Shown: positions 1-35,536, numbered from the whole stretch's first letter. The stretch is DNA of 61,560 nt, filler included, from 5 parts of 5 records of this genome joined end to end with filler, not necessarily neighbours in it; one strand, 5' to 3'. Numbers and translations are program-made. The notes: generated from the letters alone by a model not told the origin.

Positions 1-1
1 C

Positions 2-19074: not shown

Positions 19075-19185
19075 AGACCGTCTTGGGTAAGGGCTAAAGA
19101 TATTTGTAATTTTTTACTACGAATATGGAAGGGTGATAATGAAAAAACTCCTCAAAATGTATCCTATGCAAATTCCCCGGTAGAT

Positions 19186-19959
19186 TCATTTTGCCTTCCC
19201 CCGGGATTTCAAAAAGTCTCGTACGGCCTCCTTATGGGCAACGGTTTGAAAAAGGATGGCCTGGTGAGAAGACTCCCATTCAAGAACATCCTTCAAACAC
19301 ATATGAAGACTTCCTTCAAGGCCCTCTTTGATCAAGGCCATGGCCGAAAGAGCCTTTTTGGAAAGATTGTCAGCCAAGGCATTCACCTCGTTGCCCAACT
19401 CATCTTGAGGAACGGACTTGTAGATGAGGTTCATGGATGCCGCCTTCCGCCCGTCTATTTCTTCTCCCAGAAGGGCCAGTTCCCTGGCTTTCGCAAGGCC
19501 CACGAGCCTCGGCAGGAAATAGGTACCCCCTCCATCCAGAGCAACTCCAATATTGACAAAAGACTGGCACAGCCTGGAAGAATGGGAAGCGACCACGAAA
19601 TCCCCGGCCAGGGCAAGGTTGAACCCTCCTCCAAAGGCCACGCCCTCAGCCTGAACAACGATGGGCTGGGGCATCTCCCGCATCATTCTGATGACAATTC
19701 CGAACAATTTCATCACCTGAAGCCATCGGGGAGAATCCCGGGCTTCATCAAGCATGGACATGTCGGCACCGGCGCAGAAGTTTCCTCCGGCACCTTGCAG
19801 AATCACCACCCGGATCCGCCCATTTGAAGAAACCTTTTCGAATGTCTCTTTCAAGCCGTTGAGAATGTCAAGGTTGATGGCATTCATGACCTTGGGGCGA
19901 TTCAAGGTCACACGCAATATTCCGTGGCGCTTTCCCACAAGAACGGTATCTTTCTGCAT
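19186..19959 (-). CDS. Enoyl-CoA hydratase/isomerase family (PaaG-like)
   Basis: LNRP, FCAGAD; AFGGGFNLALAGD and FVNIGVALDGGG lack both crotonase Glu residues and carry an Asp; SD AGGAGG. Confidence 0.88.
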   Translation of the reverse strand: MQKDTVLVGKRHGILRVTLNRPKVMNAINLDILNGLKETFEKVSSNGRIRVVILQGAGGNFCAGADMSMLDEARDSPRWLQVMKLFGIVIRMMREMPQPIVVQAEGVAFGGGFNLALAGDFVVASHSSRLCQSFVNIGVALDGGGTYFLPRLVGLAKARELALLGEEIDGRKAASMNLIYKSVPQDELGNEVNALADNLSKKALSAMALIKEGLEGSLHMCLKDVLEWESSHQAILFQTVAHKEAVRDFLKSRGKAK

Positions 19960-20050
19960 GCATTCCTCCTTGGGGCCTGTTGGGACACCTGAAAAGGCCT
20001 CTGATGACGGAAGGGAAAAGAGGGGCAAACCAATTCACGGGCATTCCCCA

Positions 20051-21907
20051 TTACGAAAAAGAAAATTCCGAAACCTCCATTGCAGACATATCCCCCTTAA
20101 GGATGACTTCCGCTTTCCCCGGGCTCAAGGCCAGAAATCTGTTGGCAAAAAATTTTGCGGCTTCCATCTTGCCGGAGTAGAAAGCAACATCCCGATTTTC
20201 CCGAATCAATGTTTCCCGTTCTTCTCCGGTATGGGCTCCATGCTTATGGGTCAGGACCCCGAGTTTTTTGTTGGCGATGTCTGCCTGCCAAAGCAGTTGC
20301 CATCCGATAATTAAGTCTCCTAAAAGATGTAGAAAATCCACGGCATAAAGCAAAGGAAGCGCAGCATCCCGCGGTAACTCGGAGCGTAGAAAGTTTCCCG
20401 CACGGGCAACAGCGTCCTTCGCTGCTCCCAGTGTATGGATCTCTCCTTTCAAATCTTCGTTTTCCCCTGCAAGCGCCATAAAATCTCCTATCTCGTCCAT
20501 AAACAGGTCAAAAACCGAGCCCCCTTTCATTCCCAGTTTTCTGCCGACCAGGTCCATGGCCTGAATGCCGTTCGTCCCTTCAAATATGGTGGTGACCTTG
20601 CTGTCCCTGAGGAACTGCTCAACCGGATATTCGCTTACGTACCCGTAACCGCCGTAGACCTGCATGGCCGTCTCCACCACCCGGAACCCCATTTCAGACG
20701 AATACCCCTTGATAACCGGAATCAGAAGATCCGCAAACCCTTGCCACTTGCTGCGATCTTGATCGGTCGAGGCGATACGGACCCGGTCCATACAGTAGGC
20801 GCCGTAGTAGATCATGCCCCGCATGCCCTCCACCAGGCTCTTCATATACATGAGCATTCTTCGGACGTCGGGGTGGCGGATAATGGGTACGCCGGGGGCA
20901 TTGGGGTTTCCCGCATCCCTGAAATCAGGCCCCTGGATCCTCCCTTTGGCATATTTCAGGGCATGCAGGTAGGCCGTTGACGCCAGGGCCATGCCTGCCA
21001 GCCCCACCCCGAGACGGGCCTCATTCATCATCTGGAACATGATTTTCATGCCACGGTTCTCTTCACCCAACAGTTCTCCCACGCATCCGCCGTCTTCCCC
21101 AAAATTCATGGCGCAGGTGGGTGATCCATGAAGCCCCATTTTCTCCTCGAGCCCGGTAACCTTTACATCGTTGAACCCCCCCATACCGCCGTCATCTTTC
21201 ACACGGTACTTGGGCACCAGGAAAAGTGAAATACCCCTTGTGCCGGCAGGTGCGCCCTCGATACGGGCCAGCACGGGGTGAACAATATTCTCGGTCAAGT
21301 CATGATCCCCATCGGTGATGAATATCTTGGACCCGCTGATGGAAAAGGTCCCATCCGGATTTCTTTTGGCCGTGGTTTTCACGGCCCCCACGTCGGATCC
21401 CGCATCGGGTTCGGTGAGACACATGGTGCCGGCCCAACGCCCTTCATGCATCTTCAACATGTACCGGTCCTTCTGCGCGTCGGTTCCAAAGTTTTGAATG
21501 AGACGCGCGGCCCCCTTGGTAAGGCTCAAGAAGCTGTAGAAGGAATAGTTGGCCGCGAGGGTATGCTCCAAACAGGTGAGGCCGATCACCTGAGGGATAC
21601 CCTGCCCTCCCGCTTCAGGGGGCTCCGTCAGTACGATCCAACCCCATTCAGTAAATAATCGCCATGGTTCTTGAAAGGCTTCGGGCACCTTGACCCGGCC
21701 GTTTTCCATGCGGCACCCCTCCCTGTCTCCGACCGCATTCCGGGGCATCGCTTCTCTAGAAGACATTTTGAAGGATTCCTTCATAATCATCTCAAAAAGA
21801 TCCCGCGAAAATTCCTCATAGGGCTTATGGGCACAGAGTCCGTCGGCCCCCAGTTGTTCAAAAAGGGTAAATTCCATATCTCTCCGGTCCGACAACAGAT
21901 CCGCCAT
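20051..21907 (-). CDS. Acyl-CoA dehydrogenase (long, about 620 aa type)
   Basis: GTMCLTEPDAGSD, GSKIFIT, EEKMGLHGSPT, QVYGGYGY, IFEGTNGIQAMDL; alternative start 21922. Confidence 0.95.
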   Translation of the reverse strand: MADLLSDRRDMEFTLFEQLGADGLCAHKPYEEFSRDLFEMIMKESFKMSSREAMPRNAVGDREGCRMENGRVKVPEAFQEPWRLFTEWGWIVLTEPPEAGGQGIPQVIGLTCLEHTLAANYSFYSFLSLTKGAARLIQNFGTDAQKDRYMLKMHEGRWAGTMCLTEPDAGSDVGAVKTTAKRNPDGTFSISGSKIFITDGDHDLTENIVHPVLARIEGAPAGTRGISLFLVPKYRVKDDGGMGGFNDVKVTGLEEKMGLHGSPTCAMNFGEDGGCVGELLGEENRGMKIMFQMMNEARLGVGLAGMALASTAYLHALKYAKGRIQGPDFRDAGNPNAPGVPIIRHPDVRRMLMYMKSLVEGMRGMIYYGAYCMDRVRIASTDQDRSKWQGFADLLIPVIKGYSSEMGFRVVETAMQVYGGYGYVSEYPVEQFLRDSKVTTIFEGTNGIQAMDLVGRKLGMKGGSVFDLFMDEIGDFMALAGENEDLKGEIHTLGAAKDAVARAGNFLRSELPRDAALPLLYAVDFLHLLGDLIIGWQLLWQADIANKKLGVLTHKHGAHTGEERETLIRENRDVAFYSGKMEAAKFFANRFLALSPGKAEVILKGDMSAMEVSEFSFS

Positions 21908-21962
21908 ACCGCTTTTCTCCATTTCTCGTTATTGACAACTTATAGTCAGGCCAATACTTTTG

Positions 21963-22745
21963 TCATTTTCCCGAAAACACGGGTTTGCGCTTTTCCAAAA
22001 AAGCCGCCATACCTTCTTTTCTATCCTCGGAATTGAAAAGGATATTGAAGACACGCGCCTCAAAACGGATTCCGCTGTTCAGATCCATTTGCAGACCATA
22101 GTTGACGGCCTCTTTGACCATTTGAAGAGCCAGGGGGGGACGTTTACATAACTTTTTTGCAAGCTGATCCACTTCTTCATCGAGCCGCCCATGGGGCACA
22201 ACCCGATTAACGAGGCCTATTCCGAGAGCTTCCTGTGCAGTAATAATGTCACCCGTCATCATCAGCTCCTTGGCCTTGCCGGCCCCAACCAAACGGGCCA
22301 GCCGTTGTGTTCCACCATAGCCCGGCATAACACCCAGTGTTATTTCGGGTAAACCGAGCCGTGCCTTTTCCGATGCAATGCGGATATCACAGGCCAGCGC
22401 CAGTTCCGTTCCGCCGCCCAGGGCAACGCCGTTGATGCGGGCGATGATCGGTTTGCGCAACTCCTCCATCCTTCGAATAATCTCCTGCCCTTCGGTTTGC
22501 TCGTTCAACAGGCTTGAAGCAGTCGCCTCATTCATATACTTGATGTCGCCGCCCGCGACGAATGCCTTATCTCCCGCACCGGTCAAGACCGCAACCTTGA
22601 GTGAATCATCCGCCTCAATAACCTTCAGTGCATGGTCCATCTCTCTCATGACATCAATGGTCAGGGAATTCAAACTTTCCGGCCTATTAACTTTAATTCT
22701 CCCAATGCCGGTATCTTTTGAAAACCGGATACATCCATAATCCAT
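21963..22745 (-). CDS. Enoyl-CoA hydratase (crotonase-like)
   Basis: AFVAGGDI, ALGGGTELALACD, LPEITLG.MPGYGGTQRL; both catalytic Glu present. Confidence 0.92.
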   Translation of the reverse strand: MDYGCIRFSKDTGIGRIKVNRPESLNSLTIDVMREMDHALKVIEADDSLKVAVLTGAGDKAFVAGGDIKYMNEATASSLLNEQTEGQEIIRRMEELRKPIIARINGVALGGGTELALACDIRIASEKARLGLPEITLGVMPGYGGTQRLARLVGAGKAKELMMTGDIITAQEALGIGLVNRVVPHGRLDEEVDQLAKKLCKRPPLALQMVKEAVNYGLQMDLNSGIRFEARVFNILFNSEDRKEGMAAFLEKRKPVFSGK

Positions 22746-22937
22746 ATTTCTTGACTCCCATACGCTGTTGAGCCTGCAAAACACCCCGCATAAAGCCGGC
22801 CACGCCATATTTTATCCATAATGGCGCAGCCCCCTTCCAGAGCCCCATCGCTTTCAGCCTTGCGGTTATCAAGGGCGTCAATCGGGTCGGGCTTCTATTT
22901 TTCAGTCCAAATATCCATTGTCTTAACCGAATCCGAA

Positions 22938-23993
22938 TCATTTATTATGCTTGGCCCTGGCGATCTCCGATAAAAGTTCCGCACCTTTCCCATAAGGCTC
23001 AGAAGCATTTTCTCGTTTCATCATCGATACGGCACCCTCCGGGCATACGGAAGTACAAAGCCCACAGCCAACACAATTTTCCAGGGAAACAGCGGCTACA
23101 TTTTCATCTCCTATTTCAATGCCGTTAAATTTGCATATCGGCACGCACTCTTGACACCCGATACATTCATCCTCATTCACTACGGCCATGAAACTGGAAG
23201 AGGCCAGGCTCTTGTGGCCCAACTCCGTTACGCCTCTCAGCATAAAGCAGCAGCAGGAACAGCAGTTGCAAATGTAAGGCACGGGCGTCCTGGTGTTCGG
23301 GGTCGTGTGTACCAATCCCGCCGCCACCGCACGTTTAAGGGCATCAACGGCCTCCTCCACATGGATGGGTCGCGCCAGGTTCCGGTCAATGAGAAAATCC
23401 GCCCAATTGTCCAGAAGGAGACAGACATCCAGAGGGGCGTCGCACTTTCGGACCGAAAATCGGCACTGACACTGACCCAGTGCGATTTTTCCCGCTCTTT
23501 TGACGATTTCCTCCGCCGCTTCAGAAGGGAAGATTTCCATGCCGTAAGCCACCTTTTTATCCACAGGCACAACCCGGCTGATGGGAATTTTCGTGCCGTG
23601 CATGGCATCTCCAAGGGCACCCACGAAATACTCGTCCCAGAGCTTTCCAAGACTTCGGTTTCGTGGTGTATCCTCTCCCTTGACGAGGGAAAATTCAAAA
23701 AAACCGGGCATCGGCGGCATGAGCGCATAACGAACCCGGCCTTTTGTCTTCACACAATAGATAATACCCTTATCGGCCATGTTTTCGAGAAGGGAAAAGG
23801 CCCGCTCCAAGGGTACTTGTCCCCTTGCGGCGATCTTGGAAACCTCCAGGCCTGTAAGACTCATATTTGAGGCGAGTTGCGCTTCATCCGGCGTAAAAAG
23901 TTCTTTCAGGATGGCAAGAACGGCGGGATGGCTGGGCGCACCCATGGGATGTTTGTTTATTTTATTAAGTAGCGTTACATGAATATCTTGCAT
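22938..23993 (-). CDS. Multi-iron-sulfur protein (N-terminal HTH-like region, Cys-rich core, C-terminal 2x[4Fe-4S])
   Basis: CQCR...C...C, ICNCCSCCC, CIGCQECVPIC, CVGCGLCTSVCP. Confidence 0.85.
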   Translation of the reverse strand: MQDIHVTLLNKINKHPMGAPSHPAVLAILKELFTPDEAQLASNMSLTGLEVSKIAARGQVPLERAFSLLENMADKGIIYCVKTKGRVRYALMPPMPGFFEFSLVKGEDTPRNRSLGKLWDEYFVGALGDAMHGTKIPISRVVPVDKKVAYGMEIFPSEAAEEIVKRAGKIALGQCQCRFSVRKCDAPLDVCLLLDNWADFLIDRNLARPIHVEEAVDALKRAVAAGLVHTTPNTRTPVPYICNCCSCCCFMLRGVTELGHKSLASSSFMAVVNEDECIGCQECVPICKFNGIEIGDENVAAVSLENCVGCGLCTSVCPEGAVSMMKRENASEPYGKGAELLSEIARAKHNK

Positions 23994-24112
23994 CGAACAA
24001 TACTCCTTAATACTTTCCGGTATAGGGTATTAAGCAAGAAACAGGGGAAATTTCATCTTAGGATGGCCCGACTTTTACCCGAACCACCCTATATTTAAAA
24101 TCTTTTCATGCA

Positions 24113-25321
24113 TCATCTGACGCTTGGATTTTTGTATTCGGTCACGGGAACCCACAACTTCCCGACCAGATCCGCCTTGAAGATCCGCCCCTGACATTTG
24201 GGCGAATGCATATCCGGACCAAAGGAGATGACCCCCGCCAACCCCTTGGTATCAAAATTCCGGATGTTTTCCATGGCTTTGATCCATCCTTCACGGGTCA
24301 AATCCTTTCCGGCGCCTTTGAGGGCCTGGGCAAAGATCATGCTGTTCACATAGCCGAGGATATGGTAGTGCATGATCATGCCGATGTCGGGGCGGTATTT
24401 CTTGTAAACCGCTTTCAGTTGCTCCATTCCGGGGGACTCTTCCCAGAAACGCGCAATATAATTTACCGTGTACAAGTTCTTTGCCTTATCCCCCAAAAGC
24501 TCTATGACCTTCTCGTCACACACCGCCGATGTCGAAAAGCAAAGGGGATACCATCCCAGTTTATCCGTCTCCTTTAAAAAAGCGGTTGTTTCCCGGGTGA
24601 CCGTCGCCATCATCAATATATCGGGGTTGGCCCTTTTCAGGTTCAGGGCCTGGGAACTGAAATCCACGGCTCCCCGCTTGTATGCCTCTTTGGCGACAAT
24701 CTTGAGACCATATTCCTTGGCGGCCAGTTCGATCCCCCTGATATTCTCTTTACCATATGCGTCGTCCTGGTAGATGATCCCGATGGTGGGCTTTTTCATT
24801 TTCAGATCTTTTACGGCATAATCAATGGCCAGGACCATCTGTTCGCCATAGGGCATGCCGAAGGTAAATAACATGGGCATCTCTTTCATGAGACCCGGGA
24901 AGGACGGTATGATCCCGGAAAGGGCCGGAATCTTCTCCTTTTCCAGCAAAGGGACCAGTTGAAGGGTCTGGGGCGTTCCGGAGGTCGTCAGAAATGCAAA
25001 GATCTTATCGCGCGCGATGAGTTTTTTTGCCGCAGCCACGGCCCGTGTCGGGTTGTATCCGTCATCCTCCAAAAGGCACTCTACCTTTCGGCCATGGACC
25101 CCGCCCTGATCGTTGAACCATTTCCAGTAGATGCCCAAGCCATCGGCCGCGGCCGTGCCCAGTTTTGCAATGGGTCCCGTAATAAGCATGGGCCCACCGA
25201 TCTTGATGGTCTTATCGGTCACGCCGGGGACTTGATCACCGGCAGCGGTGCCGGGTATCCACGCCATAAGAATCACTGCTACCAGTGCTACACCAAAGAA
25301 ATTAACGGGCTTTTTTTTCAT
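24113..25321 (-). CDS. ABC transporter substrate-binding protein (LivJ-like)
   Basis: Signal peptide, GVTDKTIKIG, NDQGGVHGRK, DDGYNP, YQDDAYG. Confidence 0.9.
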   Translation of the reverse strand: MKKKPVNFFGVALVAVILMAWIPGTAAGDQVPGVTDKTIKIGGPMLITGPIAKLGTAAADGLGIYWKWFNDQGGVHGRKVECLLEDDGYNPTRAVAAAKKLIARDKIFAFLTTSGTPQTLQLVPLLEKEKIPALSGIIPSFPGLMKEMPMLFTFGMPYGEQMVLAIDYAVKDLKMKKPTIGIIYQDDAYGKENIRGIELAAKEYGLKIVAKEAYKRGAVDFSSQALNLKRANPDILMMATVTRETTAFLKETDKLGWYPLCFSTSAVCDEKVIELLGDKAKNLYTVNYIARFWEESPGMEQLKAVYKKYRPDIGMIMHYHILGYVNSMIFAQALKGAGKDLTREGWIKAMENIRNFDTKGLAGVISFGPDMHSPKCQGRIFKADLVGKLWVPVTEYKNPSVR

Positions 25322-25531
25322 GACTTCCTCCTTATAGGTTTCAGATGACCATCATTTCCAATCCAAACACCTTCCGGTTTAGCGCTGCTCAGTGGAGGGC
25401 GGCCTTCCCTGCAGTCCATATGGAATCAATTCATTCACCTCCTTTCAAACCAACCGCTTTTTGTTTTGCCGGCATTTTTCTGGCTGAACTTTTTGCAAAC
25501 TGAAAAAAAACCCCAGCCATACGGTTTTTGT

Positions 25532-26575
25532 TCAGTATGTAAACGGCCAGTTGCGCCAATAGGCTTTTATGGTTTGCCACCGTCCATACAGCCCGTCCGG
25601 TTCGAACACGAGGAAAAGGACAATAATCAGGCCGTTTACAACGGTTGTCAGGGCGGCGAACCGGGTGGTCAGCAGAGGATAGGTGTCTCGAACCAGATCG
25701 GTCGCCAGACGGATCCCTTCGGGGAGCAAGGTCATAAATACGGCCCCGTAGATGGAACCCAGGATACTGCCCATCCCCCCGACGATAATCATGGCCAGAT
25801 ATTCAATGGACAGCTGCAGGGTGAAATGCTCGAAGGTAATGAATTGAGTGTAGGAGGCAAACAAGGCGCCGGCAACCCCGGCATAGAAAGAACTAATGCT
25901 GAAGGCCAGAATCTTGTATCTGGCCAACTCGATCCCCATAACCTGGGCGGAAACGTCATGGTCCCGAATGGCCGCCAGGGCACGACCGATCCCTGTCCGG
26001 AACAGGTTGCGGGCAAAGGCGCCCATCAGGACCACCATAACCATCAGAAAATAGAAAAACCGTTGGTCCATATCCAGTTCAAATCCCATCACGCCGGCGG
26101 TCGGCAATGGGACCCCGTCGGACCCCCCGGTCACTCCCTCCCATCGAACAATGACGTGCTCAACAATGAAACCGAAAGCAAACGTTGTTACCGCTATATA
26201 AAGGCCCTTCAAACGAAGAGAAGGGATGGCGACAATCAATCCGGCAAGGGCCGCCGCCAGCCCGCCCAAGGGGATGCTCACGAGGAAAGGCATGTTGAGC
26301 CGGGTGATACAGAGGGCCGAGGTATAGGCCCCGATGGCGATAAAACCGGCATGCCCCAGAGAAATCAGACCGGTGTTGCCCACAAGGATGTTGAGCCCCA
26401 GGGCTCCGATCACCGCGATACCGCACAAATTCGCAAGATAAATCACGTAGCGGTCGAAAATATGCGGAAAGAGGATGAGAAAAACGAGAAAGATGAGGAG
26501 CGACAATTTCACAAAACGGGTCTGATAGAGCTTGATTTCGTCCCTATAGGATACCTTGTATGTTGTATTCAGCAT
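25532..26575 (-). CDS. Branched-chain-type ABC permease (LivM-like)
   Basis: GLNILVGNTGLISLGHAGF, LRLKGLY, AIRD, GGMGS. Confidence 0.92.
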   Translation of the reverse strand: MLNTTYKVSYRDEIKLYQTRFVKLSLLIFLVFLILFPHIFDRYVIYLANLCGIAVIGALGLNILVGNTGLISLGHAGFIAIGAYTSALCITRLNMPFLVSIPLGGLAAALAGLIVAIPSLRLKGLYIAVTTFAFGFIVEHVIVRWEGVTGGSDGVPLPTAGVMGFELDMDQRFFYFLMVMVVLMGAFARNLFRTGIGRALAAIRDHDVSAQVMGIELARYKILAFSISSFYAGVAGALFASYTQFITFEHFTLQLSIEYLAMIIVGGMGSILGSIYGAVFMTLLPEGIRLATDLVRDTYPLLTTRFAALTTVVNGLIIVLFLVFEPDGLYGRWQTIKAYWRNWPFTY

Positions 26576-26577
26576 AG

Positions 26578-27462
26578 TTACACCCGAGTAATTTTTTCCT
26601 TTCCGAAAAGCCCGTAAGGCTTGATCATGAGGATACCGATCAGAATAATGAAGGATGTTATCTCCTTGATGCCGCCCCCCACCAGTTGATCCAGATAACC
26701 GCCGGCCAATGTTTCACAGACACCGATAATAATGCCGCCCACGATTGCCCCCGGAATACTGTCCAACCCTCCCAGAATCGCCGCGGGAAATGCCTTTAAA
26801 CCGATATGACTCATATCGGGGGCAAGGAAAAGGACATTCGCATAGCAGATGCCGCCCACAGCGGCAATGCACGCGGCAATGGCCCAGGATAAGGAAAAGA
26901 CCCTTTTCACGTTGATGCCCATGAGCAGGGCCGTGTCCTGATTATTGGCCGTACCCCGCATGGCAAGTCCCAGCTTGGAGCGCCGAAAGAAGGCATAGAA
27001 CCCGACAACCAAAAGAAAGGTCGCGGCAAACACCCATATGTCCGTGGGTTTTAATGATATTCCCTGCAACTTCAACGTTTTGTCGGAAAAGAGTTTTGGG
27101 AAATTAAAAATATCATCACCCCAGATGAGGGACACGCTTCCCTGCAGGATAACGGCAAGTCCAACCGTCACCATGATGACGGAGAATATGGGCTTTCCCA
27201 AAAGCGGCCTAAGAATCAGGATTTCTATGACCATGCCGAAAACAAAGCAAAAACAGAGCGTCAAAAGGAGAGAAAGCCAATATCCCATTCCCAAATGGGC
27301 AATCAAGGTATAACAGATATAGGCCCCCACCATCATGATTTCACCCTGTGCAAAATTGAAGACATCCGTGGCTTTGTAAATGAGCACGAAACCCAGGGCA
27401 ACAATGGCGTAAATGGAACCCAGCGCCACACCGTTCAGCAAAATCTGCAAAAAATCCGTCAC
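26578..27462 (-). CDS. Branched-chain-type ABC permease (LivH-like)
   Basis: GSIYAIVALGFVLI...NFAQGE, GLAMRG, ILGGLDS. Confidence 0.92.
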   Translation of the reverse strand: MTDFLQILLNGVALGSIYAIVALGFVLIYKATDVFNFAQGEIMMVGAYICYTLIAHLGMGYWLSLLLTLCFCFVFGMVIEILILRPLLGKPIFSVIMVTVGLAVILQGSVSLIWGDDIFNFPKLFSDKTLKLQGISLKPTDIWVFAATFLLVVGFYAFFRRSKLGLAMRGTANNQDTALLMGINVKRVFSLSWAIAACIAAVGGICYANVLFLAPDMSHIGLKAFPAAILGGLDSIPGAIVGGIIIGVCETLAGGYLDQLVGGGIKEITSFIILIGILMIKPYGLFGKEKITRV

Positions 27463-29270
27463 GATCTCCCCCTTCCGTAAATGCTCTCAATTAGATCCCG
27501 GTATTTTTCTTCGATGGCCTTGCGACGAACCTTCATGGTTGCGGTCAACTCTTCATCGTCGTGGTCCAACTCTTTTTCAAGCAAGACAAATTTCCTGATA
27601 TTTTCAACCGCGGCAAATCTCTTGTTGGACGCATCCACCTCCTTCTGAATCAATTGGTAGACCCTCCCGTCCCGGACCAGGCTTTTGAAGGTGGTAAAAG
27701 GAATTTTGTTTTCCTGGGCCCATTTGGACACATTCTCAAACTCGATTTGAATCAAGGCGGACAGGAATTTCTTCCCGTCTCCCATGACGATGGCCTCATT
27801 GATATAGGGACTGAATTTCAAGGAGTTCTCCTGCTCCGACGGCGCAATGTTCTTCCCCCCGGCCGTAACCAGGATATCTTTTTTCCGATCGGTGATCACC
27901 AGATGCCCATCCTCATCCAATCGTCCCACGTCTCCCGAACAGAGCCAGCCGTCGGAAAAGATATTCACCGTTCCTTCCGGGTCTTTAAAATATCCTTGAA
28001 AGACGCCGGGGCCTTTTTCCAGGATCTCCCCATCTTCCGCTATCTTCAACTCCACGCCGGGGACCGCTTTGCCCACCGTTCCGATTTTCACGTCGTCAAA
28101 ATGGTGAATACAGCAGATACCCGAGATTTCCGTTTGGCCGTAACCCTCCCGGATGTACAGACCCATGGCATGGAAGAATTTAAGCAGGTCGGGGGAAACC
28201 GGCGCCGCACCGGAGATGGTGATCCTGGTCCGCGAAAGACCCAGAAAATGGCGCAGGCTTCGGTACAAGCAAAAGTAGGCGATCCAATAAAGAGCCTTCG
28301 AGAGCAAGGGCACCTTTTCTTTTGCGAGCTTTTTTTCAGTGATTCCAATGCCCACCGGCATAAAAACTTTGTATGCCAATCGCTTCAGGAAAGTGGCGTC
28401 CTGGATCTTTATCACAATGGACGACTGCATCTTCTCCCAGATACGCGGCACACCCATAAAAAGTGTGGGACCGATTTCCCGCAGCGCCTCCTGGACGGTG
28501 TTGATGCTTTCCGAAAAATTGACCACACATCCTGATTTTAAGGGAATAAGAATGGAGAAAATCCTTTCCGCCGCATGGCAGAGCGGCAGATAGGAAACCA
28601 CCGAGTCTTTTTCGGTCATGGGCATAACCTGGAGAACCGAATCGATCATGGCCATGAGATTGTTCTGGTTCAGCAGTGCACCCTTTGGCGGGCCCGTGGT
28701 TCCGGAGGTGTAGATAACGACGGCAAGATCCGACGGATCCGTGCGGTCGATCATTTTCTCGAAAAGCCGGGGGTGCTCTCCATGATAGGCGGCCCCCATC
28801 TCCTCCAACCGTTGAAAGCTCATGAGAAGCGGAGAATCATAGTGTCGCAACCCCTTCATGTCGATGACGATAATCTTCTCCAGATGGGAAAGATCGTCCG
28901 CCACCTCCAGCACCTTGTCTGCCTGTTCCTGATCCTCTACAATGACAAACCGGGATTCGGAATGGCCGACCACATACTTCACCTGTTCAGGCGGATTGGT
29001 GGAATAGACCCCCACCGTCATGGCCCTCACGGACTGGATGGCCAGATCCCCGTAAAGCCACTGTTGGTTGTTTTCCGAGAGGATGGAAATCTTATCGCCC
29101 TTTTCAAGCCCCAGCTTGACAAAGCCAAGGGTCACATCTCGAACATGCTCGTAATATTTCTCCCAGGTTATCTCGTTCCAGACGCCCAACTCCTTTTCTC
29201 TGAGCGCAACCCGAGAACCTGAATTTCGAACCTGTTCACGGAACAGTTTCGGCAATGTATCAACTTTCAT
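27459..29270 (-). CDS. Long-chain acyl-CoA synthetase (AMP-binding)
   Basis: YTSGTTGPPKG, YLPLCH, EGYGQTE, SGDVG, DRKKD, GGKNIAP, T.K..R; SD before ATG 29270. Confidence 0.93.
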   Translation of the reverse strand: MKVDTLPKLFREQVRNSGSRVALREKELGVWNEITWEKYYEHVRDVTLGFVKLGLEKGDKISILSENNQQWLYGDLAIQSVRAMTVGVYSTNPPEQVKYVVGHSESRFVIVEDQEQADKVLEVADDLSHLEKIIVIDMKGLRHYDSPLLMSFQRLEEMGAAYHGEHPRLFEKMIDRTDPSDLAVVIYTSGTTGPPKGALLNQNNLMAMIDSVLQVMPMTEKDSVVSYLPLCHAAERIFSILIPLKSGCVVNFSESINTVQEALREIGPTLFMGVPRIWEKMQSSIVIKIQDATFLKRLAYKVFMPVGIGITEKKLAKEKVPLLSKALYWIAYFCLYRSLRHFLGLSRTRITISGAAPVSPDLLKFFHAMGLYIREGYGQTEISGICCIHHFDDVKIGTVGKAVPGVELKIAEDGEILEKGPGVFQGYFKDPEGTVNIFSDGWLCSGDVGRLDEDGHLVITDRKKDILVTAGGKNIAPSEQENSLKFSPYINEAIVMGDGKKFLSALIQIEFENVSKWAQENKIPFTTFKSLVRDGRVYQLIQKEVDASNKRFAAVENIRKFVLLEKELDHDDEELTATMKVRRKAIEEKYRDLIESIYGRGRS

Positions 29271-29320
29271 GATTTCACCCTCTCCAAGCTCACAACAAAT
29301 CCCCTCACCTTCATGGCGTT

Positions 29321-30115
29321 TCAAGACAGCCAACGCTTCCGGCGTTTGTAGTGTTTTACGTTTCGAAAACTCTTTTTTTTGCCCACTTCGGTGAGACCCA
29401 GATAGAATTCCTTGATATCCTCGTTTTCCATGACCTTTTCCGAGGGACCATCCAGAACGATCTTTCCGTTCTCCATAATGTACCCGTATTGGGCAAAACC
29501 GAGGGCCAGGTTGGCATTTTGCTCCACGATGAGGACGGAAACCTTCTCCTGTTGGTTTACTTTTTTGGTGATATGGAAAATCTCGGCAATTACCAATGGG
29601 GCCAACCCCAAAGAGGGCTCGTCCAACATCAGTAGTTTTGGTCGGGACATGAGACCCCGACCGATGGCAACCATCTGCTGTTCACCTCCGCTCAAGTACA
29701 CGGACAGGGAATTCTTTCGCCCCCCCAGGACCGGAAAATAGTCGTAAATCCTGTTCAGATCCTTCCCCATATCGGTGGAAGATTTCCGGGTATAGGCGCC
29801 GATCCTGAGGTTTTCATCGACGGTAAGCTCGTCGAAGACCTGTCTTCCTTCAGGCACATGACATACCCCCAGACGGACCACCTGCTCCGCGGAAAGTTCA
29901 TTTAGAAGATGCTCATTGAAATTGATTGTACCGTCTTCGATCTCGCCCTCATCTGAGTAAAGAACATTTGAGATGGCCTTAAGGGTTGTTGTCTTGCCGG
30001 CTCCGTTGGATCCCAAAAGCGCCACGATTCCCGCGTCGGGCACTTGAAGGGAGATGCCCCGAACCACCAAGACCACATCATTGTAAACGACTTCCAGATT
30101 ATTGATCTTGAGCAT
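29321..30115 (-). CDS. ABC ATP-binding protein (LivF-like)
   Basis: GSNGAGKTT, LSGGEQQM, LDEPSLGLAP, EQN. Confidence 0.93.
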   Translation of the reverse strand: MLKINNLEVVYNDVVLVVRGISLQVPDAGIVALLGSNGAGKTTTLKAISNVLYSDEGEIEDGTINFNEHLLNELSAEQVVRLGVCHVPEGRQVFDELTVDENLRIGAYTRKSSTDMGKDLNRIYDYFPVLGGRKNSLSVYLSGGEQQMVAIGRGLMSRPKLLMLDEPSLGLAPLVIAEIFHITKKVNQQEKVSVLIVEQNANLALGFAQYGYIMENGKIVLDGPSEKVMENEDIKEFYLGLTEVGKKKSFRNVKHYKRRKRWLS

Positions 30116-30116
30116 T

Positions 30117-30899
30117 TTATCCTTTCCCTTTGTCTTCGCTCATTTCTCCCAGATAGGCCTTGATCACCACGGGATCCTCTCTTACGGTTTGAGGCCTGCC
30201 TTCGCTGATCTTCTTTCCGAAATCCAGGACACATACCCGATCCGAGATATCCATGACAACGCCCATATCGTGCTCAATCATCAGGATCGTCGTCCCCATC
30301 TCTTCCTGGATATCCAGGATAAAACGGGCCATATCTTCCGTCTCTTCCACATTCATTCCGGCCATGGGTTCGTCCAGCAGTAAAACCTTAGGATCCGAAA
30401 CGAGGGCCCGGCCCAATTCCACCCGTTTCCGGATGCCGTAGGGGAGCAATGAAACCACACTTTTCCGGGTATGCTCGATTTCAAGAAAATCGATGATTTC
30501 TTCGGCTTTTTTTCGGATCTTCATCTCTTCTTTCACCGCCCGGCCGTAGAAAATCCCGGCCGACAGGACATCGGCCCTCAATTTGGAGTGGCATCCCAAA
30601 AGAAGGTTTTCCAGGACCGTCATATGTTTGAAAAGGGCTATGTTCTGGAATGTTCGGGCGATGCCCAGATTGGAAATATCACTGATCTTTTTTTTCAACA
30701 ATTCCTGCCCCATGAACTTAATGGAGCCTGTGTCCGGCTTGTAAATGCGGCTGATGCAGTTAAAAATAGTCGTCTTACCGGCACCGTTGGGACCGATGAT
30801 GGCGTAGATCTCACCCTCTTCAACGGTGAAATCCACATCCAACAATGCCTGTACACCGCCGAAATTGATGCTCAAGCGCTTACCTGACAATATTGTCAT
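30117..30899 (-). CDS. ABC ATP-binding protein (LivG-like)
   Basis: GPNGAGKTT, RTFQN, LPYG, LLDEP, IEHDM, AYLG. Confidence 0.93.
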   Translation of the reverse strand: MTILSGKRLSINFGGVQALLDVDFTVEEGEIYAIIGPNGAGKTTIFNCISRIYKPDTGSIKFMGQELLKKKISDISNLGIARTFQNIALFKHMTVLENLLLGCHSKLRADVLSAGIFYGRAVKEEMKIRKKAEEIIDFLEIEHTRKSVVSLLPYGIRKRVELGRALVSDPKVLLLDEPMAGMNVEETEDMARFILDIQEEMGTTILMIEHDMGVVMDISDRVCVLDFGKKISEGRPQTVREDPVVIKAYLGEMSEDKGKG

Positions 30900-30955
30900 G
30901 TCGTTCTTCCCCTTACTCTACCAGAGACAACCCGTAAGACACGTCACTGATATCT

Positions 30956-31351
30956 CTATGCAAAGTATTTTTTCAGATACTTGACAACATCTTTTACCAG
31001 CGAACCTCGAAAGACACGCTTGACCCCCATCTTGATAAGTTCCTCTTCATCATGAGGCGGAAAAATGCCCCCGACAATAACCGGGATTTCCTGGGCCTTG
31101 TGCTTGATAAGCGCTTCCATCAGGATGGGGGTCAGCGTGAGGTGCTCTCCGGAAAGGCAGCTAACCCCGATCATGTCCACGTCTTCCTGGATGGCGCTCT
31201 GAACCAGCATCTCGGGGGTATTGTACATGCCGAGATAGATCACTTCGTAGCCTTCGCTTCGGAGCATGGCGGCGAGGACCTTTGCGCCACGGTCATGCCC
31301 ATCCAGGCCGAGCTTTGCGATAACGATACGAACCCTGTTTTCGGATCCCAT
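30956..31351 (-). CDS. Acyl-CoA mutase small (cobalamin-binding) subunit
   Basis: AKLGLDGHDRGAKV (DxHxxG), SCLSG.H, VGG. Confidence 0.93.
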   Translation of the reverse strand: MGSENRVRIVIAKLGLDGHDRGAKVLAAMLRSEGYEVIYLGMYNTPEMLVQSAIQEDVDMIGVSCLSGEHLTLTPILMEALIKHKAQEIPVIVGGIFPPHDEEELIKMGVKRVFRGSLVKDVVKYLKKYFA

Positions 31352-31374
31352 TCTCTCATCTCCCTTTGAGTCCT

Positions 31375-32895
31375 TTAATCCTGCGAATAATCGGGCAGGA
31401 TCTCCCCCACGTAGTCTTTTTCACTCACCCGACTGGCCGCGATAATCCCGGCATGGGTGGCGGCATCATTGGCCGCCATGGAACATTCCGAACTGTCGGA
31501 AGCGTGGTAGAGGCCTTCCACAAATGGACACTTGGCCCGAGGTCTGGCGTCTCCCACCTGGAAAGGCGCCTGGGCTACCGGCACCAGGCTGTCGGAAACC
31601 GTGTAAAGCGCCCATTCCAGGGATTCCTTGAACCCCGGGTAGCTCTCGGTCATGAACGCCATCATCCGATCATAGGCCAGATTGACCAGTTCCCGGCTGT
31701 GCGCCTCCTTGTCCGTCAAGGACACGTAGGCATCCAGAAGCTGTTTTCCGGCGGGGGCCCGACCGGGATCCATACCCGAACTGTCCCAGAACCCCATCCG
31801 CACATCACTGTCAAAGCCGTCCTCTTTGCCCGCAATTTTGGGTGTGAAGGTCACGTGCTCTTTCACGACTTGACGATTAAGGCCGAAGTACACCGCCCCG
31901 ATCCCTGCACGCCAGAAGCCCTTAACCCGATTGACGAAGGTGTATGGGAAGTGCTTTTCCGGGATATATCGGAACATCTCGTTGACCAGCCCGGAATTGA
32001 TGACGATGGGGCATTCGATCTTCTCAACAGTGCCTTCCACGTCAACCAGTACCCCTTTCACTTTTCCCCCTTCAATCAGAACTTCCATGACCTTTGCTCC
32101 GGTCATCACCTTGCCGCCATTCTCTTCGATGACGTGGCACAGGGACATGGGAATTTTAACAAAGCCCGGCAGCCCTGGAGTCGAACATCCACCCAGGGAA
32201 AAGCGCTTTCCGGCCCTGGCCACAAAACGATTCATCAAGATGTTGTCTCCGGCGGAGATATTGGCCGGGTCATTGATGGTGCAATTCATGGTGCCATTGA
32301 CGTAATGGAACTCTTTGGTATTCCCATTGTCGGTCCGGGCCTCCATCCATTCTTTCAAGCTCATATGGTCGTACGAGTGGGCCTCTTCGGCCGACATCCG
32401 GACCATGGTGCGGTTAATCCTGCCGCATTCGGACCGGTCCCGGTCATTCATCCATGGAAAGTTCCCTCCCCGCTCCGAACCACGTTCAAAGTGATATAGT
32501 TTTCCGTCATGCCACCATCCGGCGCTTATGGCCGGATAGAGGGTCAAGGGTTTGCCGAGGTACGTAAGGCATGTGTTGGTGCGGCCCTTTTCAGTAACCA
32601 TAAGCGTATGGATCCCCGCCTCAAAGGCATATCCGTCCAGGTAGCCCTGGCTGAACAGTTCCGGCAGATCCGGTTCCGACCTGGAAAACCACGTGCAGGC
32701 GGCCTCTCCCATGGCTTTCCGATAGGTTTCGGCACCCTCCTCCTTTAAGTTAAAGGAGATGTCCCTCCCTCCGATTCGAGAGGCTTTCTCCAGCACCAGG
32801 ACTTTCATTCCCTCTTGTTTGGCCAAAATGGCTCCGGCGGTGGGCCCGCCAACACCGGCGCCGATAACAACCACATCAAATTTCTCGTTCTTCAT
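31375..32895 (-). CDS. FAD-dependent oxidoreductase, phytoene dehydrogenase-like
   Basis: DVVVIGAGVGG Rossmann motif, LEK...GGR, FEAGIH, DPGRAPAGKQL, VEGLY; SD GGAGG before ATG 32895. Confidence 0.8.
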   Translation of the reverse strand: MKNEKFDVVVIGAGVGGPTAGAILAKQEGMKVLVLEKASRIGGRDISFNLKEEGAETYRKAMGEAACTWFSRSEPDLPELFSQGYLDGYAFEAGIHTLMVTEKGRTNTCLTYLGKPLTLYPAISAGWWHDGKLYHFERGSERGGNFPWMNDRDRSECGRINRTMVRMSAEEAHSYDHMSLKEWMEARTDNGNTKEFHYVNGTMNCTINDPANISAGDNILMNRFVARAGKRFSLGGCSTPGLPGFVKIPMSLCHVIEENGGKVMTGAKVMEVLIEGGKVKGVLVDVEGTVEKIECPIVINSGLVNEMFRYIPEKHFPYTFVNRVKGFWRAGIGAVYFGLNRQVVKEHVTFTPKIAGKEDGFDSDVRMGFWDSSGMDPGRAPAGKQLLDAYVSLTDKEAHSRELVNLAYDRMMAFMTESYPGFKESLEWALYTVSDSLVPVAQAPFQVGDARPRAKCPFVEGLYHASDSSECSMAANDAATHAGIIAASRVSEKDYVGEILPDYSQD

Positions 32896-32943
32896 CAAAA
32901 CCTCCCTTTTTCCCCTTTGTAATAAATCGAAGGCCACAAACCG

Positions 32944-34608
32944 TCAGATAAACGGGTGGGTCAGCACCTCCAAAGGATCATAAGGTTCTCCCATGGCCAC
33001 GCGCACGGTGCCCAAGACCTCCCCCAAGGTGGCGTAGTGCTTTGCCGCTTCTATCATCGCAGGGATCAGGTTTTCCTTCTCCCCCTCTTCCGCCCTTGAC
33101 TTGAGTGCCATAAGGGCATCCTTTACTCCCTTTTCATTTCTGGTTTCCTTAAGACGCTTAACCCTTGCAATCTGATTTTCCTCCGATTCCGGCGAGATGC
33201 GGTGGAAATCCCCAACGGACGGGCCTTCTTCCATCTGAAAACTGTTCAACCCCACCACGGTCCGTTCGCCGCTTTCCACCTCTTGCTGATATTTCAAGGC
33301 AGCCTCATCGAACTGGGCGTCCACCCATCCGGAATCCAGAACCTTCTTCATTCCCCCTTTTCCCTCGATCTCTTCCATAATCTTGTTCACTTCCTTCTCG
33401 ATCTCTTCCGTAAGCGATTCCATGAAGTAGCTCCCCCCAAGAGGATCCGCCACTTTGGCCACGCCGGTTTCATAGGCCAGGATCTGCTGTGTTCGAATGG
33501 CCAGTCTCACCGATTCTTCCGTGGGTAGGGCAATGGGTTCGTCGTATGAACAGCAATGAAGGGATTGAACCCCCGCCAGCACGGCCGCCATGGCTTCATA
33601 GGCCACTCGGACGATATTGTTGACCGGCTGTTGAGGAACGAGAGAGCACCCGGCCGTGTGAACGCCGAATTTAAATTTCCATGACTTGGGGTCTTTAGCC
33701 CCGAATCGCTCTTTCATGATTTTCGCCCAGATACGGCGCGCTGCCCGCAACTTGGCGATCTCTTCGAAAAAATCCATGTGGGCGGAACAGTAGAAGGCGA
33801 ATCTGGGAGCGAAATCATCGATCGCAAGGCCCCTGTCCAGGACGCCTTGGACATAGAGCATGGCCATGGAGAACCCAAAGGCAACCTCCTGGGGGGCGCT
33901 CAAGCCCTGTTCTCTCAAATCATAGAGGTTGACATTGATGGGATACCAGCGGGGCATGTTCCGGATGGAGTACTCGATCACATCCACCCCCGTTTTGAGG
34001 GCCAAATCGATGGGAGAGGAGATCTTAAAGCCGGCGTATCGGCAGTGAATGGGATCATTCTGGGTTGTCCCCGCCAATACCGAAGGATCCAATCCCAGAT
34101 TCTGAGCCAATGCGATATATTGCGACAGGGTCACCGGGGTCTGGGTTGAAGAGACGATCAAAGACATGCTGATCTTTTCCAGGGGCAGGTCCTTCATCAG
34201 GAGTTCCATGTCCTGAAGGGTGCACATGGACACCCCCTGAACACCCACTTCCCCTCCGGCCCGGGGATGATCGGAATCGATACCCATGATGCTGGGATTG
34301 TCCGGGATTACATTGAGCCCGCTGGACCCCTCTCCGATCAAGAATTTCAGCCTCTCGTTGGTCTCCGCGGGTGTTCCGTATCCCGTTACCTCGCGGCGGG
34401 TCCAGTAGCGGCCGCGAAACATGTTCTTGTGAATTCCTCTGGTATAGGGAAACTCACCCGGGGCTCCCGTCGTTTTTCCATAATCAATTCCGGAAACGTC
34501 CGCCGGGCCATAGGAGTCCTTCAAGGGAAGGCCGGACCAGGTTTTCAACCCGGTGGGTTTCTCATAATAAGCATCAACGAGCTTGGGATTTTTTTCTTTT
34601 TCAGACAT
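32944..34608 (-). CDS. B12-dependent acyl-CoA mutase large subunit (methylmalonyl-CoA mutase family), divergent active site
   Basis: PGEFPYTRG, GTTQND, FFEEIAKLRAAR, QSLH..SYDE..ALPT, DPLGGSY. Confidence 0.93.
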   Translation of the reverse strand: MSEKEKNPKLVDAYYEKPTGLKTWSGLPLKDSYGPADVSGIDYGKTTGAPGEFPYTRGIHKNMFRGRYWTRREVTGYGTPAETNERLKFLIGEGSSGLNVIPDNPSIMGIDSDHPRAGGEVGVQGVSMCTLQDMELLMKDLPLEKISMSLIVSSTQTPVTLSQYIALAQNLGLDPSVLAGTTQNDPIHCRYAGFKISSPIDLALKTGVDVIEYSIRNMPRWYPINVNLYDLREQGLSAPQEVAFGFSMAMLYVQGVLDRGLAIDDFAPRFAFYCSAHMDFFEEIAKLRAARRIWAKIMKERFGAKDPKSWKFKFGVHTAGCSLVPQQPVNNIVRVAYEAMAAVLAGVQSLHCCSYDEPIALPTEESVRLAIRTQQILAYETGVAKVADPLGGSYFMESLTEEIEKEVNKIMEEIEGKGGMKKVLDSGWVDAQFDEAALKYQQEVESGERTVVGLNSFQMEEGPSVGDFHRISPESEENQIARVKRLKETRNEKGVKDALMALKSRAEEGEKENLIPAMIEAAKHYATLGEVLGTVRVAMGEPYDPLEVLTHPFI

Positions 34609-34669
34609 TTATTCACCTCGATATCAGATCGATAAACAAACCCGCTTTTGGGTCCATGACTCCCTGAAT

Positions 34670-35470
34670 CTATCGGTTCAGAAAACCCGGTTTTCGCTTC
34701 TCCAGAAAGGCTCCAACGCCTTCTCTGGCATCATCCGTGTTCAACAAGGTCTCAAGCCCCTTCATCTCAAGTGCAAGCCCATCCGTGAACGGAAGCTCAA
34801 GTCCTTTATTGATGCATTCCTTGACCACGGAAACGGCCACACCCGCCAGATCCTTGAATGTCTGGGCATAAGCCAGACAGCTTTCCATCAGTGATCCCGG
34901 ATCATAAATTCGGTCAACCACACCTTTGGCAAGTGCATCTTCGGCGTCAAGAAGTGTTCGGTTATAAATGATATCTTTTGCGCGGCTCCTACCGATCAAA
35001 CGGCACAGGCGTTGGGTTCCGCCGGCCCCCGGAAGGAGTCCCAGGTTCAGCTCCGGCAATCCCACGCGTGCATTTCCTTTGGCCATGAAGCGAAAATCGC
35101 AGGCGAGCGCCAGTTCCAGGCCCCCTCCCATGGCGTGACCGTTGATGGCGGCAATGACAGGAAATGGGAGATCCTCAACCTGGTTGATGGTCGCCTGGAG
35201 TCGGGTGTTGAAAAAGATCTGGTCTTTCACCAGATTCGGCCCTTCCATGTACCCCTTAATCATTTTGATGTCCGCGCCCGCAATAAAGATACCCTCTAAA
35301 CGACTGGCCAGGATCAGGCAACGAATCTGACTTGGTCTTTCCCTGAAATCCGCCGCCACCTGTGCCAACTCCTCAACCATATCCAGATTGAGTCCGTTTG
35401 CCGGGGGCGCATTAAACCAGATGATCCCCGTTGTTTCCCGTTTTTCCGTTTCCAGAAACTTCAGGCCCAT
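34670..35470 (-). CDS. Enoyl-CoA hydratase/isomerase family
   Basis: FIAGADI, AMGGGLELALACD, LPELNLGLLPGAGGTQRL. Confidence 0.92.
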   Translation of the reverse strand: MGLKFLETEKRETTGIIWFNAPPANGLNLDMVEELAQVAADFRERPSQIRCLILASRLEGIFIAGADIKMIKGYMEGPNLVKDQIFFNTRLQATINQVEDLPFPVIAAINGHAMGGGLELALACDFRFMAKGNARVGLPELNLGLLPGAGGTQRLCRLIGRSRAKDIIYNRTLLDAEDALAKGVVDRIYDPGSLMESCLAYAQTFKDLAGVAVSVVKECINKGLELPFTDGLALEMKGLETLLNTDDAREGVGAFLEKRKPGFLNR

Positions 35471-35472
35471 AA

Positions 35473-35535
35473 TTACCCCTGCTTATCTGCTAAGTATTTG
35501 CGGGCAATGACGGTCCTCTGGATTTCGGAGGTCCC
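35473..35535 (-). CDS. Acyl-CoA dehydrogenase, C-terminal fragment (truncated by contig end)
   Basis: GTSEIQRTVIARKYLADKQG*, the canonical ACAD C-terminal motif; not in the ORF track. Confidence 0.75.
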   Translation of the reverse strand, partial: GTSEIQRTVIARKYLADKQG

Positions 35536-35536
35536 C

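Follow-up and report, generated by a model that had tools for sequence, protein, structure and literature searches.

Few acyl-CoA mutase specificities are known, and each of them has opened a pathway: propionate, valine/isobutyrate, methyl tert-butyl ether (MTBE)/2-hydroxyisobutyrate (2-HIBA), ethylmalonyl and pivalate. In isobutyryl-CoA mutase (ICM), Phe and Gln stand at the positions of Tyr89 and Arg207 of methylmalonyl-CoA mutase (MCM). The catalytic site of MCM (1REQ) is described as five residues, namely Tyr89, His244, Lys604, Asp608 and His610 (PMC3205055). The 2-hydroxyisobutyryl-CoA mutase (HCM) of Aquincola tertiaricarbonis, HcmAB (4R3U), consists of two separate subunits, the barrel one having about 560 aa and the B12-binding one about 135 aa. 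The COG1233 flavoenzymes hydroxylate or desaturate allylic carbons in the oxygen-free degradation of terpenes and steroids (PMC11061730, PMC4109377); in Castellaniella defragrans, such an enzyme acts jointly with a CoA ligase, a ferredoxin and ring cleavage of the BadK/H/I-like kind, and that paper names no mutase (PMC4109377). Here, a gene cluster is described in which a flavoprotein gene lies between the two subunit genes of a split acyl-CoA mutase; it occupies positions 19186-35536, on the minus strand, of a stretch of DNA of 61,560 nt, the whole of which is called the window below. With a probability of roughly 60%, the cluster would serve to import a bulky neutral acid, either branched or alicyclic, to activate it with CoA, to oxidise it with a flavin enzyme and to rearrange it with B12, by an undescribed oxygen-free route.

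The three genes at the centre of the cluster, called the triad here, are as follows.

32944-34608, minus strand: mutase large (substrate-barrel) subunit, 554 aa; PF01642, 574.5 bits
31375-32937, minus strand: FAD-dependent oxidoreductase of the CrtI/phytoene desaturase (PDS)/amine-oxidase fold, open reading frame (ORF) of 520 aa; PF01593 (residues 40-504) and PF13450
30956-31351, minus strand: mutase small B12-binding subunit, 131 aa; PF02310, 94 bits, and TIGR00640, 139 bits against a cut-off of 57

The large subunit covers profile positions 1-511 of the 512 of PF01642 and reaches 541.7 bits against TIGR00641 (cut-off 303.8), and it scores 440 bits against the NCBIfam MCM equivalog NF006944 (cut-off 876) and 232 bits against the IcmF equivalog (cut-off 1500). 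Its best solved relative is HcmA (4r3u, 434 bits, residues 21-536), ahead of the human and Propionibacterium MCM, and the split into two subunits is also shared with HcmAB. MCM and ICM (IcmAB/IcmF) belong to the same superfamily, with the B12-side Lys, Asp and His conserved. Residues were mapped from printed alignments, in which a constant offset (+1 for 1REQ, +11 for 4r3u) checks the numbering; the reference numbers for MCM (1REQ) and HcmA (Ile90, Asp117) are those that we take to apply. The signature over the key columns is E73 V74 I101 R190 G193 Y229 D230 G315 H317, and the correspondences are as follows.

MCM Gln88-Tyr89: Glu73-Val74 here
HcmA Asp117: Ile101 here
MCM Arg207 (Gln in ICM and HCM): Gly193 here
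MCM Tyr243-His244: Tyr229-Asp230 here
MCM His328 / Gln330: Gly315 / His317 here

Both barrel catalytic residues are replaced, Tyr89 by Val74 and His244 by Asp230; in the small subunit, K13, D17 and H19, which correspond to 1REQ Lys604, Asp608 and His610, are invariant together with G22 of the DxHxxG motif in 19/19 aligned sequences. As read from these residues, the cofactor (B12) side of the mutase is intact and the substrate side is divergent. The comparison of specificity residues covered MCM, ICM and HCM references. Where MCM has Tyr89 and the carboxylate-binding Arg207 and ICM has Phe and Gln, Val74 and Gly193 are found here; where HcmA has Ile90 and the hydroxyl-binding Asp117, the alignment to 4r3u gives Val74 and Ile101, so there is no hydroxyl anchor, and HcmA keeps Tyr-His and His-x-Gln, whereas the clade here has Tyr-Asp and Gly-x-His. 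The pocket thus places Val, Ile and Gly where known mutases have an aromatic residue, a hydroxyl-binding Asp and a carboxylate-binding Arg, and an earlier note on this DNA, which had called the mutase unusual, is borne out by the loss of the MCM, ICM and HCM specificity residues and of catalytic His244. Since Arg207, Asp117 and an aromatic residue at position 89 are all missing, we infer a bulky, neutral acyl-CoA as the substrate, which would be branched, alicyclic or aryl-alkyl in kind.

These replacements characterize a whole clade. The set assembled for it holds the query and 117 database proteins (>500 aa, at least 57% identity, from the 120 best matches); the Tyr-Asp (YD) pair is present in 118/118, the motifs E-[VL], I-x-D and R-[YW]-[AC]-G predominate, and the clade comprises at least 117 database clusters at that identity or above. 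In an alignment of 91 mutase segments out of 100 fetched loci, homologues of about 45% identity show in the same columns the ICM-type signature F/Q/H (30 + 8 + 5 + 1 rows) or the MCM-type Y/R/H (13 rows), so the column mapping is valid. In a FastTree of 59 mutase rows, from which every second row of the canonical group was left out, the flavoprotein-linked mutases form one clade (20/20, SH-like 99), which is nested in the E-V...Y-D clade (25 rows, support 100, stem 0.48). Judged by its sequence, the mutase is a member of the acyl-CoA mutase superfamily and belongs to a distinct, previously uncharacterised clade.

The flavoprotein ORF probably starts at the ATG at 32895 (Met15), giving 506 aa, because its close homologues all have 502-508 aa. 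This close family is narrow, with about 30 clusters at 54-88% identity, after which identity falls to 37% or less; the distant relatives carry the names phytoene desaturase family or retinol saturase. The amine-oxidase match (PF01593) is full-length but weak, and G26, G28 and G31 of the N-terminal GxGxxG are invariant. The AlphaFold2 (AF2) model (pLDDT 93.1, built on 39 sequences, residues 1-14 disordered) finds as best Foldseek matches 3ka7 and 3nrn, which are uncharacterised archaeal oxidoreductases, 4rep, a CrtD-like desaturase, and 5mog, a plant PDS, and it also matches protoporphyrinogen oxidase (PPO) and monoamine oxidase (MAO); E-values are 1e-26 to 1e-17 for 3ka7, 4rep, 5mog, PPO and MAO, and identity to the structural matches is 13-17%. 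By its domains, motif and model, the flavoprotein is placed in the CrtI/PDS/amine-oxidase superfamily, with its two-domain architecture.

His110 is invariant in 39/39 flavoprotein sequences, within the motif A-F-E-A-G-I-H110-T, which includes F105. In limonene dehydrogenase CtmAB and the steroid delta24-desaturase (delta24-SD), the flavinylated His lies in the consensus G-F-L/R-x-N/S-T/L-H-A, five residues past a conserved Phe (PMC11061730). The spacing of His110 from Phe105 equals that of this consensus; Phe and His match and the other positions differ, so that the consensus is only partly matched. These enzymes likewise pair a phytoene-desaturase-like flavoprotein with an iron-sulfur (Fe-S) electron carrier in oxygen-independent catabolism; unlike the single gene here, they are heterodimers of two paralogous subunits. 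No fused flavoprotein-mutase was found among flavoprotein relatives of 911-2600 aa (E <=1e-20), which is weak evidence. No literature on an acyl-CoA mutase paired with a CrtI-like flavoprotein was found by a search that left most subscription journals outside.

The linkage of mutase and flavoprotein is kept wherever it can be followed. A mutase search of genomes gave 80 loci, 13 of which were inspected for synteny, and a flavoprotein search of metagenomes gave 20 further loci (loci are designated L with a number). The order large subunit, flavoprotein, small subunit is found in L001-L007, and the contig of L008 ends within the flavoprotein gene; the window, L001-L008 and L081-L098 each have a single flavoprotein gene. 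Among the 27 loci with a flavoprotein of at least 66% identity, where L005/L088 and L007/L082 each seem to represent one organism twice and thus make the counts less than fully independent, the large subunit lies directly upstream of the flavoprotein in 20/20 with at least 600 bp of room, and the small subunit within 1.2 kb downstream in 25/25 with at least 400 bp. In the window, the gaps flanking the flavoprotein gene are 48 and 23 bp. Mutase paralogues at 58-59% identity (L009-L011) have no flavoprotein gene. To our knowledge, no flavoprotein is encoded between HCM subunit genes. The flavoprotein as the constant partner of the mutase is the most distinctive feature of the cluster, a point that the earlier note had not brought out. 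In L004, an extra ORF of 295 aa (9539-10426), with no Pfam match, stands between the flavoprotein and small-subunit genes.

Further paralogues of the mutase show other signatures. Those at L009:204-7447 and L012:4332-5966 read QVVYNYAHQ, EGFRYYDGH and HEIRGYNAK over the nine key columns, and such non-canonical signatures suggest, from the residues alone, further unassigned mutase specificities. Six homologues from metagenome-assembled genomes (MAGs), in L033, L052, L055, L064, L066 and L073 (match 10001-11600 in each), read QYAYRAHGV; they keep Tyr89/Arg207 and have Ala, Gly and Val in the Tyr243, His328 and Gln330 columns. Mutase paralogues with odd signatures occur three or four together at loci such as L009 and L084; in L084 (about 6000-19500), which is a multi-mutase cluster, the triad is followed by three further large-subunit paralogues (46-56% identity), two further small subunits, and genes for an Fe-S protein and a short-chain dehydrogenase/reductase (SDR). 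PF01642 matches number 5-13 per related MAG (G001-G004, the genomes of L006, L007, L003 and L001), which is unusually many.

The remaining genes of the cluster, in their order from the upstream side, are given below, where ECH stands for an enoyl-CoA hydratase-family and ACAD for an acyl-CoA dehydrogenase gene.

35473-35536, minus strand: C-terminal fragment of an ACAD, 20 aa plus stop (GTSEIQRTVIARKYLADKQG), similar to the C-terminal end of the ACAD that precedes ECH_a in L006
34670-35470, minus strand: ECH_a, enoyl-CoA hydratase/isomerase family, 266 aa; PF00378, 177 bits, NCBIfam matches all below cut-offs
30117-30899, minus strand: LivG-like ABC ATPase; PF00005 and PF12399, LivG model 260 bits, below the cut-off of 362
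29321-30115, minus strand: LivF-like ABC ATPase; PF00005, LivF model 198 bits, below cut-off
27459-29333, minus strand: AMP-forming (fatty) acyl-CoA ligase, 624 aa; PF00501, 241 bits, and PF23562, FadD11 model 398 bits, below 950
26578-27462, minus strand: LivH-like permease; PF02653, 147 bits
25532-26575, minus strand: LivM-like permease; PF02653, 152 bits
24113-25321, minus strand: LivJ-like periplasmic solute-binding protein, 402 aa; PF13458, 216 bits
22938-23993, minus strand: soluble multi-cluster Fe-S protein, 351 aa; Fer4 families at residues 270-324 only
21963-22808, minus strand: ECH_b, crotonase-type enoyl-CoA hydratase, 281 aa; PF00378, 245 bits, short-chain enoyl-CoA hydratase model 313 bits, below 394
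20051-21922, minus strand: long ACAD, 623 aa, with a C-terminal PF12806 domain; PF00441, PF02770, PF02771 and PF12806
19186-20028, minus strand: ECH_c, PaaG-like enoyl-CoA hydratase/isomerase, 280 aa, the last gene of the cluster; PF00378, 152 bits, PaaG model 194 bits, below 345

The earlier note had listed at least 15 co-oriented genes, and all of them are present in the order that it gave: 14 complete genes and the ACAD tail, all on the minus strand, with intergenic gaps of -13 to 210 bp. Its assignment of the uptake, ligase and beta-oxidation families is supported by Pfam and NCBIfam, and its remark that no epimerase, MeaB or thiolase is visible holds for the part of the cluster in the window, where none of the three was found. 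Where the contigs of relatives reach further, a thiolase and an SDR are encoded upstream of the triad, so the missing thiolase is probably a truncation artefact; MeaB is genuinely unclustered with the triad, and homologues above cut-off occur elsewhere, unlinked to it, in 3/4 related genomes (G001-G004).

The importer set, of the HAAT/LIV-type ABC family, is complete, with two ATPases, two BPD_transp_2 permeases and one Peripla_BP_6 binding protein, the best solved relative of the LivJ-like protein being 4n03 (88 bits). Its ligand is unassigned, because the LivFGHMJ equivalog scores are all below cut-off. The ligase gene is embedded among the transporter genes, and the same position is seen in L001, L006, L007 and L081. 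ECH_a homologues (58-81% identity) immediately precede the mutase gene in L001, L006, L008, L086, L087, L093 and L098, and an ECH_b homologue, 74% identical, comes after the Fe-S gene in L003. The Fe-S protein has a winged-helix-like N-terminus, a Cys-rich middle and a 2x[4Fe-4S] ferredoxin C-terminus, with 16 Cys invariant over 52 aligned sequences, including the motifs CxCx6Cx6C and CNCCxCCC, and its family is widespread (401 representatives of about 350 aa at E <=1e-30). Its AF2 model (pLDDT 95) has solved matches only at the N-terminal winged helix-turn-helix (Z about 8) and the C-terminal ferredoxin (Z about 10); the middle region (residues about 120-265) has no solved structural match (Foldseek, VIA), and the ESM Atlas returned generic Fer4 clusters only. 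We take the protein for the probable electron carrier of the flavoprotein, a role as redox-sensing regulator being the less likely reading.

Around the triad, the gene content varies. The order livG-livF-ligase-livH-livM-livJ follows the triad in L001, L006, L007 and L081, and it begins after the triad before the contig end in L082, L086, L087, L089 and L097; an Fe-S homologue lies downstream in L001, L003, L006, L081 and L085. The upstream context is of two kinds. Type A, which is full in L005-L007, L084, L086, L088 and L091 and partial in L002, L004, L008, L083, L093, L094 and L098, contains a divergent tandem TetR regulator, a MenB/BadI-like crotonase (MenB 357 bits against a cut-off of 380, BadI 304 against 468), a BadH-like SDR (BadH the top model, 256 bits against 431) and an ACAD, with a thiolase, another ECH, another ACAD and ECH_a as optional genes. 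The order ACAD tail, ECH_a, mutase of the window fits this type. Type B (L003, of Syntrophaceae, and L081) contains a ligase, IorA (645 bits against a cut-off of 651), IorB (Pfam-confirmed in L081 only), two HGD-D proteins and a D-2-hydroxyacid dehydrogenase. The best models of the HGD-D pair are double-cubane reductase, BzdN and HadC, all below cut-off, and an assignment as dehydratase, benzoyl-CoA reductase (BCR) or double-cubane enzyme was not reached. ACAD-EtfB-EtfA lies downstream of the triad in L003 alone, which also has a second ligase, an Fe-S gene, ECH_b and an ACAD there. The mutase-flavoprotein-mutase triad is the only universal part, and the flanking modules vary. The 16-kb catabolic cluster of the earlier note is supported in part: the genes are co-conserved and the triad is universal, but the whole block is not fixed, since the ABC/ligase block follows the triad in some loci only and the upstream module is of two kinds.

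A likeness to the Bad/Ali genes of Rhodopseudomonas palustris and the Mrc genes of Castellaniella defragrans is seen in those loci with full type A context, where a ligase, an ACAD, a hydratase, a BadH-like SDR and a BadI/MenB-like hydrolase adjoin the triad; a BadI/MenB-like gene is also found in L004, L008, L093 and L098, with no SDR above threshold there. Unlike these systems, the window, where the contig ends, has no BadH/BadI-like genes, the relatives score below the equivalog cut-offs, and the known pathways have neither a B12 mutase nor a CrtI-fold flavoprotein at this step. The indoleacetate (iaa) pathway was set aside, as it would, to our understanding, need a carboxylate-binding mutase and has no such flavoprotein. 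No characterised pathway was found that matches the cluster gene for gene, in agreement with the earlier note.

The proposed route would begin with the LIV-type ABC importer, which would bring in an organic acid, and the ligase encoded within the transporter genes would form its CoA thioester. ACADs and hydratases would then oxidise the chain or ring up to a branch that blocks beta-oxidation, joined in relatives by the SDR, the thiolase and the BadI/MenB-like hydrolase. The mutase would move the -CO-SCoA group to the adjacent carbon by B12 radical chemistry, with Asp230 and His317 taking over the functions of His244 and Gln330. The flavoprotein would oxidise or desaturate the hydrocarbon part of the same molecule and pass electrons to the multi-cluster Fe-S protein, for which limonene dehydrogenase CtmAB is a precedent. 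Uptake and CoA-thioester formation draw on family-level evidence; we infer the oxidation, rearrangement and flavoprotein steps. As the substrate class, terpenoid or naphthenic-type acids are preferred in this analysis because of the COG1233 precedents: allylic oxidation, the His spacing, and the C. defragrans enzyme with its ferredoxin, ligase and Bad-like ring cleavage. A bolder form of the proposal, which is tentative and which we think somewhat doubtful, is that mutase and flavoprotein constitute a new two-enzyme system, possibly one complex, that, with no need of oxygen, removes the block which a methyl branch or a quaternary carbon sets in bulky neutral acyl-CoAs; the mutase would be the first of its superfamily to dispense with Tyr89 and His244 and to rely on Asp230 and His317, the flavoprotein would act as a desaturase with covalently bound flavin and make or consume the mutase substrate, and the two enzymes would supply a missing step in anaerobic terpenoid/naphthenic acid degradation.

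Several points weigh against an oxygen-free route for a bulky neutral acid. The BadI-, BadH- and thiolase-like genes lie outside the window, and the BadI/BadH-like ones score below NCBIfam cut-offs. The closest long relatives, L081 (88% mutase identity) and L003 (81%), have the type B upstream module, which points to amino-acid- or arylalkanoate-derived substrates. A distal carboxylate could still be bound by Arg190, which is invariant and lies three residues ahead of Gly193. The flavoprotein may work ahead of the mutase or after it, or it may act on the mutase cofactor, and the covalent flavin that His110 may carry is suggested by one residue and its spacing. The term anaerobic draws on the taxon labels of the relatives and on the presence of Fe-S and ferredoxin-type genes.

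Given the type B context, the chief rivals as substrates are branched-chain or aryl-alkanoic acids. The triad module would then serve amino-acid-derived (Leu/Ile/Val branched-chain) or aryl-alkanoic (2-/3-phenylpropionyl-CoA-type) acids and work with indolepyruvate:ferredoxin oxidoreductase (IOR), D-2-hydroxyacid dehydrogenase, a 2-hydroxyacyl-CoA-dehydratase-like enzyme and ACAD/electron-transfer flavoprotein (Etf), as in Stickland-type reductive branches, the mutase interconverting 2-branched and linear isomers. The type B genes directly upstream of the triad in L003 and L081, the ACAD-EtfB-EtfA genes downstream in L003 and the LIV (branched-chain amino acid) type of the importer all agree with this; however, the window has ACAD-ECH upstream of the mutase, as in L006, L086 and L087, the HGD-D pair is not assignable, no activator ATPase is seen in the L003 and L081 loci, and the ligase resembles the long-chain FadD11, so that this explanation is considered unlikely, although worth serious attention. 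It has also to be asked whether the flavoprotein is an accessory mutase subunit, which reduces inactive cob(II)alamin or gates cofactor loading in place of MeaB/adenosyltransferase. Its gene is invariably enclosed by those of the two mutase subunits, at short distances in the window, and the cluster has no MeaB gene, but MeaB homologues occur elsewhere in 3/4 of the related genomes, the protein folds like CrtI, PDS and amine oxidases, which oxidise substrates and have a large substrate domain, and no fused form was found among proteins of near or greater length. We know of no B12 reductase with a CrtI/PDS/amine-oxidase fold, which counts against such a role, and we regard it as improbable.

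The carboxylate-binding potential of Arg190 near the pocket bears on another explanation, by which the enzyme is an alkylsuccinyl-/arylsuccinyl-CoA mutase of the fumarate-addition hydrocarbon pathway, converting (1-methylalkyl)succinyl-CoA to alkylmalonyl-CoA. The record names of the samples of relatives suggest hydrocarbon-rich sites (e.g., tar biofilm), and the 5-13 PF01642 matches per related MAG would also fit; however, the MCM carboxylate anchor Arg207 is replaced by Gly, no glycyl-radical enzyme, carboxyl transferase or decarboxylase is found among the annotated loci, and the ABC importer and ligase argue for an external free acid, which leaves this explanation very improbable. Least credible of all is that the mutase is a divergent member of a known specificity (MCM, ICM, HCM or pivalyl-CoA mutase) with coincidental neighbours: generic family models do name it methylmalonyl-CoA mutase, and HcmA is its best solved match, but the MCM, ICM and HCM specificity residues are all absent, His244 is replaced clade-wide, the NCBIfam scores (MCM 440 vs 876 bits, IcmF 232 vs 1500 bits) fall far short, and the neighbourhood is kept in 20/20 (large subunit) and 25/25 (small subunit) loci. 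Uptake, activation, oxidation and rearrangement of a neutral bulky acid thus remains the preferred reading.

The clade replaces both barrel catalytic residues, and one of its subclades has a dedicated flavoprotein partner; it would offer the study of B12 enzymes a catalytic site that has been altered in nature. The relatives are uncultured Desulfobacterota-type MAGs, some with sample record names that suggest hydrocarbon-rich sites, and the identity of the substrate could explain the oxygen-free mineralisation of branched, alicyclic or isoprenoid acids.

The window is made up of five contigs (1-10971, 11072-35536, 35637-45258, 45359-54640 and 54741-61560), joined by four spacers of the form N(44)-TTAATTAATTAA-N(44) at 10972-11071, 35537-35636, 45259-45358 and 54641-54740. 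GC varies between the pieces (about 0.52, 0.25-0.30 and 0.41), so the bin probably mixes organisms. The cluster forms the high-coordinate end of contig 2 (24.5 kb), and the spacer that starts at 35537 cuts this contig on the upstream side of the cluster, which confirms the truncation that the earlier note had described. The nearest relatives of the cluster are in MAGs of Deltaproteobacteria, Syntrophaceae and Desulfomonilaceae; we regard the cluster as a real operon for catabolism, with presumably co-transcribed genes, from an uncultured sediment bacterium of the Desulfobacterota type. Promoter and terminator scans of the cluster did not exceed shuffled controls (14 vs 14.5 and 29 vs 22.6), and Rfam, including cobalamin riboswitches, gave no match on 11072-35536. 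Beyond the last gene of the cluster, about 1.08 kb (18106-19185) have no ORF of at least 110 aa, and two ORFs of 542 aa and 167 aa, without Pfam match, follow at 15929-18105. Elsewhere on contig 2, with no evident link to the cluster, are genes for a PAS-LuxR regulator (11736-12872, minus strand), a PHB-depolymerase-C-like protein (13095-14507) and a PhaR-like regulator (14528-15097, minus strand).

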